Below, piece after piece: positions 21,064-23,598 of a stretch of DNA of 64,000 nucleotides (within the stretch, counting starts at the first letter, position 1; each line of letters begins with the position of its first letter). The notes under the pieces were generated by a model. The model ran no database searches. It was not told the DNA's origin and saw only the letters and a program-made list of their open reading frames with translations. The DNA lies in NCBI RefSeq assembly GCF_002854065.1, contig NZ_CP024147.1. One strand, 5' to 3'. Source of the DNA: Escherichia coli (GTDB taxonomy: Bacteria; Pseudomonadota; Gammaproteobacteria; Enterobacterales; Enterobacteriaceae). Both the position numbers and the translations under genes were made by a program.

Positions 21064-23598
21064 ATGGCCGGGAATGACCGCGAGCCAATTGGACGCAAAG
21101 GGAAACCGACGCGTCCGGTCAAACAAAAGGTAAGCCGTCGTCGTTACGAAGATGACGATGATTACGACGATTATGATGACTATGAGGATGAAGAACCGAT
21201 GCCGCGCAAAGGTAAGGGCAAAGGCAAAGGGCGTAAGCCTCGTGGCAAACGCGGCTGGCTATGGCTGCTGTTAAAACTGGCTATCGTTTTTGCCGTGCTG
21301 ATCGCCATTTACGGCGTTTATCTCGATCAAAAAATTCGTAGCCGTATTGATGGCAAGGTCTGGCAACTGCCTGCGGCAGTTTATGGTCGAATGGTCAACC
21401 TTGAGCCAGACATGACCATCAGCAAGAACGAGATGGTGAAGCTGCTGGAGGCAACACAGTATCGTCAGGTGTCGAAAATGACCCGTCCTGGCGAATTTAC
21501 TGTGCAGGCTAACAGCATTGAGATGATCCGCCGTCCGTTTGATTTCCCGGACAGCAAAGAAGGGCAGGTGCGTGCGCGTCTGACCTTTGATGGCGATCAT
21601 CTGGCGACCATCGTCAATATGGAGAACAACCGTCAGTTCGGTTTCTTCCGTCTTGATCCGCGCCTGATCACCATGATCTCCTCACCAAACGGTGAGCAAC
21701 GTCTGTTTGTGCCGCGCAGTGGTTTCCCGGATTTGCTGGTGGATACTTTGCTGGCGACAGAAGACCGTCATTTTTACGAGCATGATGGGATCAGTCTCTA
21801 CTCCATCGGACGTGCGGTGCTGGCAAACCTGACAGCCGGACGCACGGTGCAGGGGGCGAGTACGCTGACGCAACAGCTGGTGAAAAACCTGTTCCTCTCC
21901 AGCGAGCGCTCTTATTGGCGTAAAGCGAATGAAGCCTACATGGCGCTGATCATGGACGCGCGTTACAGCAAAGACCGTATTCTTGAGCTGTATATGAACG
22001 AGGTGTATCTCGGTCAGAGCGGCGACAACGAAATCCGCGGCTTCCCGCTGGCGAGCTTGTATTACTTTGGTCGCCCGGTAGAAGAATTGAGCCTCGATCA
22101 GCAGGCGCTGTTAGTCGGTATGGTGAAAGGAGCGTCCATCTACAACCCGTGGCGTAACCCGAAACTGGCGCTGGAGCGACGTAATCTGGTACTGCGTCTG
22201 CTGCAACAGCAACAGATTATTGATCAAGAACTCTATGACATGTTGAGTGCGCGTCCGCTGGGTGTTCAGCCGCGCGGTGGGGTGATCTCTCCTCAGCCAG
22301 CCTTTATGCAACTGGTGCGTCAGGAGCTTCAGGCTAAATTAGGCGATAAGGTAAAAGATCTCTCCGGCGTGAAGATCTTCACTACCTTTGACTCGGTGGC
22401 CCAGGACGCGGCAGAAAAAGCCGCCGTGGAAGGCATTCCTGCACTGAAGAAACAGCGTAAGTTGAGCGATCTGGAAACCGCGATTGTGGTCGTCGACCGC
22501 TTTAGTGGTGAAGTTCGTGCGATGGTCGGAGGTTCTGAGCCGCAGTTTGCGGGCTACAACCGTGCGATGCAGGCGCGGCGTTCGATTGGTTCCCTTGCAA
22601 AACCAGCGACTTATCTGACGGCTTTAAGCCAGCCGAAAATCTATCGTCTGAATACGTGGATTGCGGATGCGCCAATCGCGCTACGTCAGCCGAATGGCCA
22701 GGTCTGGTCACCGCAGAACGATGACCGTCGTTATAGCGAAAGCGGCAGAGTGATGCTGGTGGATGCGTTGACCCGTTCGATGAACGTGCCGACGGTAAAT
22801 CTGGGGATGGCGCTGGGGCTGCCTACGGTTACGGATACCTGGATTAAACTGGGCGTACCGAAAGATCAGTTGCATCCGGTTCCGGCAATGCTGCTGGGGG
22901 CGTTGAACTTAACGCCAATCGAAGTGGCGCAGGCATTCCAGACCATCGCCAGCGGTGGTAACCGTGCACCGCTTTCTGCGCTGCGTTCGGTAATCGCGGA
23001 AGATGGTAAGGTGCTGTATCAGAGCTTCCCGCAGGCAGAACGCGCTGTTCCGGCACAGGCGGCGTATCTGACACTATGGACCATGCAGCAGGTGGTACAA
23101 CGTGGTACGGGTCGTCAGCTTGGGGCGAAATACCCGAACCTGCATCTGGCAGGGAAAACAGGGACTACCAACAATAACGTAGATACATGGTTTGCGGGCA
23201 TTGACGGCAGCACGGTGACCATCACCTGGGTCGGCCGTGATAACAACCAGCCGACCAAACTGTATGGTGCCAGCGGGGCAATGTCGATTTATCAGCGTTA
23301 TCTGGCTAACCAGACGCCAACGCCGCTGAATCTTGTTCCGCCAGAAGATATTGCAGATATGGGCGTGGACTACGACGGCAACTTTGTTTGCAGCGGTGGC
23401 ATGCGTGTCTTGCCGGTCTGGACCAGCGATCCGCAATCGCTGTGCCAGCAGAGTGAGATGCAGCAGCAGCCGTCAGGCAATCCGTTTGATCAGTCTTCTC
23501 AGCCGCAGCAACAGCCGCAACAGCAACCTGCTCAGCAAGAGCAGAAAGACAGCGACGGTGTAGCCGGTTGGATTAAAGATATGTTTGGTAGTAATTAA
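21064..23598 (+). CDS. mrcB: Penicillin-binding protein 1B (bifunctional glycosyltransferase/transpeptidase)
   Basis: Track ORF 21049..23598; start taken at [12 protein letters not shown] (844 aa); N-terminal acidic/basic tail, transmembrane segment, transglycosylase and transpeptidase domains. Confidence 0.95.

Follow-up and report, generated by a model that had tools for sequence, protein, structure and literature searches.

Two in-frame translation starts for the long and short forms of PBP1b in Escherichia coli mrcB, compared across the Enterobacteriaceae

The mrcB (ponB) gene of Escherichia coli K-12 is described as having two start codons, a finding credited to Kato (1984), Broome-Smith (1985), and Chalut (2001) (cited in PMC13423804). 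Both products are annotated in the K-12 RefSeq record, as NP_414691.1 at 164730..167264 and as YP_010051172.1, "PBP-1Bgamma," at 164865..167264; the second begins 135 nt, or 45 codons, after the first. In an E. coli Ribo-RET study, mrcB, infB, and clpB were the three previously characterized internal starts, and all of them were recovered as initiation peaks. Ribo-RET likewise called both mrcB starts in Salmonella, where long-form-specific peptides were found and the extension was given as 42 amino acids (PMC11005335). Western blotting of PBP1b gave bands of 94.2 and 88.9 kDa, an M46L substitution was used to express the alpha form alone, and constructs with heterologous promoters placed upstream of mrcB produced the gamma form (PMC13423804, 2026, Nature Microbiology). 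In the same work, a GFP fusion to alpha was concentrated at midcell and gamma was peripheral. The first alpha residues were predicted to bind FtsA via an R6-E303 contact, in the pocket that takes the FtsZ C-terminal peptide, and the alpha N-terminal peptide displaced FtsZ from FtsA on supported bilayers. An R6E substitution abolished recruitment and septal protection, and the cells showed septal lysis as in a ponB deletion. The FtsA contact rests on an AlphaFold model together with indirect bilayer and POLAR assays, and the authors themselves call for biochemical and structural validation (PMC13423804). Two starts, two proteins, septal localization specific to alpha, and its dependence on R6 have thus been established by others in K-12.

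There are several systems with which the locus studied here can be compared, and the closest is K-12 mrcB itself, which has the same Met1/Met46 spacing and the same residues 1 to 60 as the window, by which we mean the whole 64,000-nt stretch of E. coli DNA that was analyzed. The long and short MrcB proteoforms of Salmonella Typhimurium share its architecture, with a disordered extension that is basic and then acidic. They differ from the window in that the extension is 42 rather than 45 amino acids long, the acidic tract is shorter, and there is one Gly-Lys unit fewer; the 42-residue extension agrees with the Met43 found in the Salmonella locus that we compared (L009). The infB gene, with its IF2 forms, and clpB resemble mrcB in that one open reading frame yields two N-terminally nested proteins through an internal Shine-Dalgarno (SD) sequence and start codon. 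However, those proteins are unrelated to PBP1b, and what is present or absent in mrcB is a short, disordered, cytoplasmic targeting tail on a membrane anchor, not a folded domain. In Gram-positive class A penicillin-binding proteins, the cytoplasmic N-terminal tail likewise serves as a division-site address label (PMC13423804). The Gram-positive tails bind GpsB, whereas the tail of PBP1b-alpha is reported to bind FtsA, and the sequences are unrelated. We know of no dual-start arrangement in the GpsB-binding class A proteins of Gram-positive bacteria.

The gene in the window is mrcB, encoding the class A protein PBP1b, since curated equivalog cut-offs were exceeded. Its protein scored 1734.6 bits with NCBIfam NF007061 (PRK09506) over residues 1 to 843, where 1120 is the cut-off, and 1247.9 bits with TIGR02071 (PBP_1b), where the cut-off is 717.75. 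Four Pfam domains scored above their gathering thresholds, in the order PF14812 PBP1_TM (residues 1 to 79), PF14814 UB2H (113 to 197), PF00912 Transgly (209 to 379), and PF00905 Transpeptidase (473 to 714). The structures in PDB entries 3VMA, 3FWL, and 5FGZ match the protein up to residue 804; because they start at residue 53, 55, or 58, the alpha-specific tail is absent from any solved structure. The gene is flanked by hrpB and fhuA. A 601-nt query around the site had matches in 5424 of the 5426 complete E. coli genomes; strain CUWW06, in which hrpB, mrcB, and fhuA are annotated, was 100% identical to it. Between a point 108 nt 5' of the ATG and the end of codon 67, no base differs from K-12 MG1655. 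Codon 68 shows one synonymous difference, and the hrpB-mrcB spacer is 64 nt shorter in the window, where a GC-rich palindromic element is truncated; neither start is touched by any difference. Within the species, identity over the first 207 nt of mrcB is 99% or more in 5089 of 5424 genomes. Among the others are in-frame deletions of one Asp and/or one Gly-Lys unit, with Met46 retained in all three of the divergent genomes that were sampled. The 40 nt that cover the gamma SD and ATG were identical in 5293 of 5426 complete genomes.

The coordinates of the features are collected in Table 1. The preliminary description of this DNA had pointed to an in-frame Met 45 codons after the first ATG, to an acidic stretch preceding it, and to a charged, low-complexity N terminus, and each of these was borne out. 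The second ATG is codon 46, as seen in both the sequence and its translation, and it sits between an acidic and a basic tract, 19 residues before the membrane anchor. The net charge runs from +8 in residues 1 to 27 through -13 in residues 28 to 45 to +10 in residues 46 to 63, and charged residues make up 56% of residues 1 to 63, against 20% across the remainder of PBP1b. The acidic and Gly-Lys tracts are encoded by weak, degenerate tandem repeats, with a period of 9/18 at 21144-21191 and of 6 at 21206-21230. For the anchor, the presumed limits are those of the UniProt entry. The residues R6, P8, I9, G10, and R11 of the peptide reported to bind FtsA are all present; ftsA itself lies outside the window. 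A further in-frame candidate, the TTG at 21049 that heads the mechanically called reading frame, was rejected as a start, as it overlaps the alpha SD and has no SD of its own.

Table 1. Positions of the mrcB features within the window
Feature	Position	Strand	Basis and details
Conserved 5' leader	20985..21045	+	Invariant TTGAGAGAT 20985-20993, hairpin 1 20997-21020, hairpin 2 21028-21045; alignment of 81 sequences
SD core GGAG of alpha start	21053..21056	+	7 nt 5' of ATG; anti-SD duplex -6.6 kcal/mol
mrcB CDS, PBP1b-alpha, 844 aa, 94.3 kDa	21064..23598	+	ATG 21064-21066, stop 23596-23598; translation, RefSeq annotation of the 100%-identical CUWW06 stretch, NCBIfam and Pfam matches
Alpha-specific N-terminal peptide, codons 1-14	21064..21105	+	Identical to the K-12 peptide of PMC13423804, a reported FtsA binder
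Acidic tract, codons 29-44, also holding the gamma SD	21148..21195	+	Translation, charge count, period 9/18 repeat
Gamma SD GAGGA, from codons E41-D42	21184..21188	+	10 nt 5' of ATG; anti-SD duplex -6.1 kcal/mol
Nested CDS, PBP1b-gamma, 799 aa, 88.9 kDa	21199..23598	+	ATG 21199-21201 (Met46); homologous K-12 RefSeq CDS YP_010051172.1
Basic Lys/Arg/Gly juxtamembrane tract, codons 47-63, common to both isoforms	21202..21252	+	Translation, charge count
Membrane anchor, about codons 64-87 (presumed limits)	21253..21324	+	Hydrophobic run in translation; PF14812 PBP1_TM covers residues 1-79

The pattern at Met46 was set against what the gene would offer by chance. Among the 27 in-frame ATG codons of mrcB, a strong duplex with the anti-SD was predicted only at Met1 (-6.6 kcal/mol) and Met46 (-6.1 kcal/mol), the next best being -3.8 kcal/mol. 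However, 7% of all mrcB positions reach -6.1 kcal/mol, so that about one to two such in-frame ATG codons are expected by chance, and acidic codons readily yield GAGG or AGGA strings. The 60-nt window around Met46 falls in the least structured 2% of the mrcB mRNA, with a minimum free energy of -8.0 against a mean of -15.5 +/- 3.8. When 100 nt of context was included on either side, the accessibility of Met46 was no higher than background (0.46 versus 0.38 +/- 0.11). Synonymous-site constraint at Met46 was also unexceptional in a comparison of 80 species that are too closely related for this test, with a normalized codon entropy of 0.57 over codons 41 to 50 versus 0.53 gene-wide. In these closely related species, GAG was used at Glu41 in 89%, and several other Glu columns were equally GAG biased. 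The lowest codon entropy in mrcB, 0.31, was found at codons 1 to 10. Taken by itself, the SD-plus-ATG pattern at Met46 is within chance expectation and is only weakly suggestive, and sequence alone is insufficient as proof that the dual start functions. The case for the internal start rests on comparative evidence and on published experiments, not on the local pattern.

The comparative evidence came from a scan of species-representative genomes, in which 439 loci were detected and 80 Enterobacteriaceae mrcB loci were compared. The alpha start and its SD (GCGGAGA or GTGGAGA) were kept in all 80 species. Residues 1 to 12 read MAG(N/D)DREPIGRK throughout, the sole variation being N4D in the Klebsiella/Raoultella group, and R6, P8, I9, G10, and R11 were invariant. 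Judged from these loci, the long form is universal among the 80 species compared.

The gamma position was more variable. Of the 80 species, 67 have ATG there and 7 have GTG (Klebsiella, two Leclercia, Silvania, and Kosakonia cowanii), and Superficieibacter (L069) has a GTG with an SD no more than a few codons from the aligned position. A start-competent codon is missing in the Kluyvera clade (CGT/CGC), in a pair formed by Phytobacter and "Kosakonia S29" (GCG/ACG), and in Pseudescherichia vulneris (GCG). A 4-nt SD core at -17 to -7 was present in 73 of the 74 species with a gamma start codon and in 2 of the 6 without one. This association gave a Fisher P value of 4.6e-5, which is uncorrected for phylogeny, the losses representing three independent lineages. 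In two of the three, Kluyvera and P. vulneris, start codon and SD were lost together. Kluyvera intermedia retains the YEDE residues, but a GAA codon removes the SD, and CGT stands at the start position. The gamma SD core was found at -15 in 61 of the species, at -12 in 2, and at -9 in another 9; because its position differs between genera and it is built from different codons, the gamma SD has been re-created and not simply inherited. Most species have 17 to 20 residues between the gamma start and the anchor, with 17 in most genera and 19 in Escherichia. The basic tract holds 8 to 10 Lys/Arg residues in every species and the acidic tract 9 to 16 Asp/Glu residues, and there was no charge compensation between the two across species (Spearman rho = -0.20; P = 0.07). 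In these alignments, the gamma start has turned into GTG several times and has been lost at least three times, and since Kluyvera, the Phytobacter group, and P. vulneris lack it, gamma would seem to be dispensable.

The short form might be made in some way other than by internal initiation on the full-length message. An internal promoter in the first 135 nt of the gene could give rise to a shorter transcript of its own, from which most of the gamma form would be translated, in which case transcription would set the isoform ratio. We consider this very unlikely. A consensus scan of positions 20700 to 21400 found no sigma-70-like site, and the sole transcription start site on record, from a genome-wide study, maps some 430 nt farther upstream, at K-12 164235 or approximately window 20633. 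A conserved and properly spaced SD is what internal initiation on the same mRNA requires, and published constructs with heterologous promoters in front of mrcB made gamma (PMC13423804).

A second alternative is that the short form arises by proteolytic trimming of alpha, with Met46 and its SD-like sequence a by-product of coding for an acidic tract. SD-like strings in Glu and Asp codons are expected by chance, as described above, and the synonymous conservation at Met46 is unremarkable, both of which fit such an origin. Cleavage of the tail does occur as well, since a third PBP1b band, beta, is ascribed to OmpT cleavage during sample preparation. Against trimming, both in E. coli and in Salmonella the internal start is occupied by initiating ribosomes arrested with retapamulin, and M46L has been employed to obtain alpha alone (PMC13423804). 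The joint disappearance of start codon and SD in Kluyvera and P. vulneris, and the re-creation of the SD elsewhere at shifted positions, also speak against a by-product, and we find this alternative scarcely credible. That Met46 is the sole physiological start and the upstream 45 codons an annotation artifact, as might be argued from crystal structures without residues 1 to 52 and from a mechanical reading frame that reaches even the TTG, so that upstream extension means little by itself, is almost certainly wrong given the conservation of residues 1 to 12 and their SD in all 80 species with only N4D varying, the minimal codon entropy of codons 1 to 10, and the long-form peptides in Salmonella (PMC11005335), and it was already refuted by the 94.2-kDa band and the R6E phenotype (PMC13423804).

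Internal initiation on a single message is thus the reading that we favor. We think it very likely that ribosomes enter the mrcB mRNA at two sites in a single frame, giving PBP1b-alpha and PBP1b-gamma, and that the alpha tail sends the enzyme to the septum. Initiation at the first ATG, with its GGAG, would yield the 844-residue alpha form, and initiation at the second, where the SD within the Glu41-Asp42 codons lies in a purine-rich and poorly structured region, would yield the 799-residue gamma form. The computed masses of the two isoforms, 94.3 and 88.9 kDa, agree with the published bands. The two forms have in common the basic juxtamembrane segment and the membrane anchor, followed by the UB2H, glycosyltransferase, and transpeptidase domains. 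The 45-residue extension would be present only on alpha, and its first 14 or so residues are modeled to bind FtsA and so to recruit the enzyme to the division site. There, alpha would reinforce septal peptidoglycan, with the rest of the charged, disordered extension acting as a tether. Gamma, which keeps only the basic juxtamembrane part of the cytoplasmic tail, would remain in the lateral membrane pool. How strong each start is relative to the other would therefore set the amount of PBP1b available to the septum, and the start ratio would act as a device that partitions the enzyme between the septum and the lateral pool. We expect the strain represented by the window to behave like K-12, with both starts used, in view of the identical start regions. 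The match to the known long and short PBP1b isoforms that had been proposed for this gene is supported by the K-12 identity, the dual RefSeq coding sequences, and the published Ribo-RET, western blot, and M46L results. The dual start was correctly observed and interpreted, but it has been known since 1984-85 and is annotated in the K-12 reference.

A separate observation was made next to the alpha start. About 80 nt 5' of the alpha ATG are strongly conserved in all 80 species, and the conservation sets in abruptly at the invariant TTGAGAGAT, whatever lies upstream. Two hairpins can be drawn in this leader. Hairpin 1 was predicted by RNAalifold, and its distal pairs covary, one pair occurring as G-C, A-U, U-A, and G-U and the next as C-G and U-A. 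Hairpin 2 is nearly invariant and ends 7 nt before the alpha SD. In a 15-pair model of the two hairpins, 94.4% of cells were paired, versus 48 to 59% with slid partners, and hairpin 1 alone gave 93.1%. Double-change cells in the two hairpins together numbered 87, compared with 26.7 +/- 6.0 after shuffling, and none of 500 shuffles reached the observed value. About 8% of the pair cells are G-U, which would be mismatches on the opposite strand, and an RNA in the mrcB orientation is therefore favored. The thermodynamic z-score of the leader is weak, at -1.08, so the case for hairpin 1 stands on covariation and not on stability.

We found no Rfam family at gathering score near mrcB, and a permissive Rfam search there returned chance-level matches only, namely MicF on the minus strand, with 22 bits against 79, and a viral snoRNA. 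A literature search turned up no paper describing an mrcB leader element. The genome-wide study cited above for the K-12 transcription start also placed that of Klebsiella mrcB, at 296 nt upstream; with both published positions, the hairpins would fall inside the 5' untranslated region. In a genomic-SELEX study, TTGAGA-17-TGTAAC is listed as a predicted promoter; its overlap with hairpin 1 counts against a purely RNA reading. The -10 element of this predicted promoter lies in the variable loop of hairpin 1 and is not conserved in other genera. An out-of-frame 31-codon reading frame from the invariant TTG at 20985, read by eye, was rejected, as it lacks an SD and no peptide is conserved through the compensatory changes of hairpin 1.

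We speculate that this undescribed structured leader, conserved across the Enterobacteriaceae, could act on alpha initiation alone and so tune the alpha:gamma ratio posttranscriptionally, although we regard such a role as improbable. An effect confined to alpha is conceivable because the leader is adjacent to the alpha start and 150 to 200 nt from the gamma start, and the ratio would be evolutionarily adjustable because two of the three lineages lost the gamma start and its SD independently. Of the elements described here, only the leader hairpin might merit further study.

A function for the two forms was assigned in 2025-26, with alpha binding FtsA and fortifying the septum, and mrcB thereby becomes a case in which one enzyme is split between two cellular sites through the choice of start codon. 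The codons that specify the acidic linker of the long form also supply part of the ribosome-binding signal for the short form. To this, the present comparison adds the universality of alpha among the species compared, the conversions of the gamma start to GTG, and the losses of the gamma start, with decay of the SD in two lineages. If the leader hairpin does control the alpha start, it would offer a way into the question of how the septal share of PBP1b is set, and an alpha:gamma ratio set in this way would fix the allocation of PBP1b between septal and lateral pools.

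The in-frame gamma start of mrcB, the PBP1b gene, is not universal among the Enterobacteriaceae loci compared (designated L0xx). There were three lineages in which no such start codon was found at about codons 44 to 48, namely, the Kluyvera clade (L065, L070, and L073), the Phytobacter group (L080 and L081), and Pseudescherichia vulneris (L061), and in two of these three the Shine-Dalgarno core was lost as well. The start is GTG in Klebsiella, Leclercia, Silvania, and Kosakonia cowanii. We found no report of this distribution of losses and GTG variants in the literature examined.

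Within E. coli, the N-terminal tail is shortened in frame in about 6% of complete genomes; these length variants, located at codons 29 to 56, lack a single Asp, a single Gly-Lys unit, or the two together. The variant loci sampled came from E. coli and close relatives (L083, L084, L085, L007, and L008), and every one of them retained Met46. The variants are consistent with slippage in short tandem repeats. Four tyrosines are spaced along the acidic tract of this tail, and they are conserved above the level of the surrounding, interchangeable Asp and Glu residues, tyrosine being present in 58 to 69 of the 81 sequences in three columns of the alignment. At the other end of the protein, a Gln/Pro-rich low-complexity tail is encoded at 23461-23580 (codons about 800 to 840); the solved PBP1b structures all end at residue 804, and the tail lies past that end.

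Features located in the window
Feature	Position	Location	Remark
IS2 copy	8525-9855	outer-membrane usher gene, yad fimbrial operon	1331 bp
Short GC-rich palindrome	20943-20966	hrpB-mrcB spacer	CTCCCTCTCCC TGT GGGAGAGGGG
Hairpin 1	20997-21020	mrcB leader	
Hairpin 2	21028-21045	mrcB leader	
Tyr28, Tyr34, Tyr37, Tyr40	21145-21183	acidic tract of mrcB tail	
HtrA/degP 5' UTR thermometer	37055-37100		Rfam match, 77 bits
t44 RNA	45257-45343	upstream of rpsB	Rfam match, 83.5 bits

The IS2 copy interrupts the usher gene in this strain. The closest complete genome, CUWW06, carries IS2 in the same gene at a site about 1.5 kb away, so that two near-identical strains have distinct insertions. The two Rfam matches are ordinary, known elements in expected places.

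One record among the compared loci, L055, is titled Chryseobacterium sp. 18061, and its mrcB locus is of the Enterobacteriaceae type. The first 90 residues of its MrcB are identical to those of L053 ("Citrobacter sp. 18056," from the same study), and the last 80 nucleotides of the two leaders differ at only 3 positions. This record probably carries the wrong label or comes from a contaminated assembly.

Upstream of mrcB, the spacer palindrome is a truncated copy of an element that is 64 nucleotides longer in K-12, at a site where a 2016 paper listed two putative hairpin/G-quadruplex (HPGQ) elements. Some E. coli lack the element, and others have an inverted or different version; the spacer is thus polymorphic, whereas the leader downstream of it is not. 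The roughly 80 nucleotides preceding the mrcB ATG are kept in 80 of 80 Enterobacteriaceae species by alignment, and the conserved block (20985-21063) opens with TTGAGAGAT, which is invariant among them. Under a two-hairpin model, 94.4% of cells were paired, and double-change cells numbered 87, versus 26.7 ± 6 in shuffles; compensatory changes in hairpin 1 were seen from genus to genus. The leader overlaps a predicted promoter, TTGAGA-17-TGTAAC. No matching family was found in Rfam, and the literature examined contains no description of this leader, which may be a 5' element of mrcB that has not been described before.
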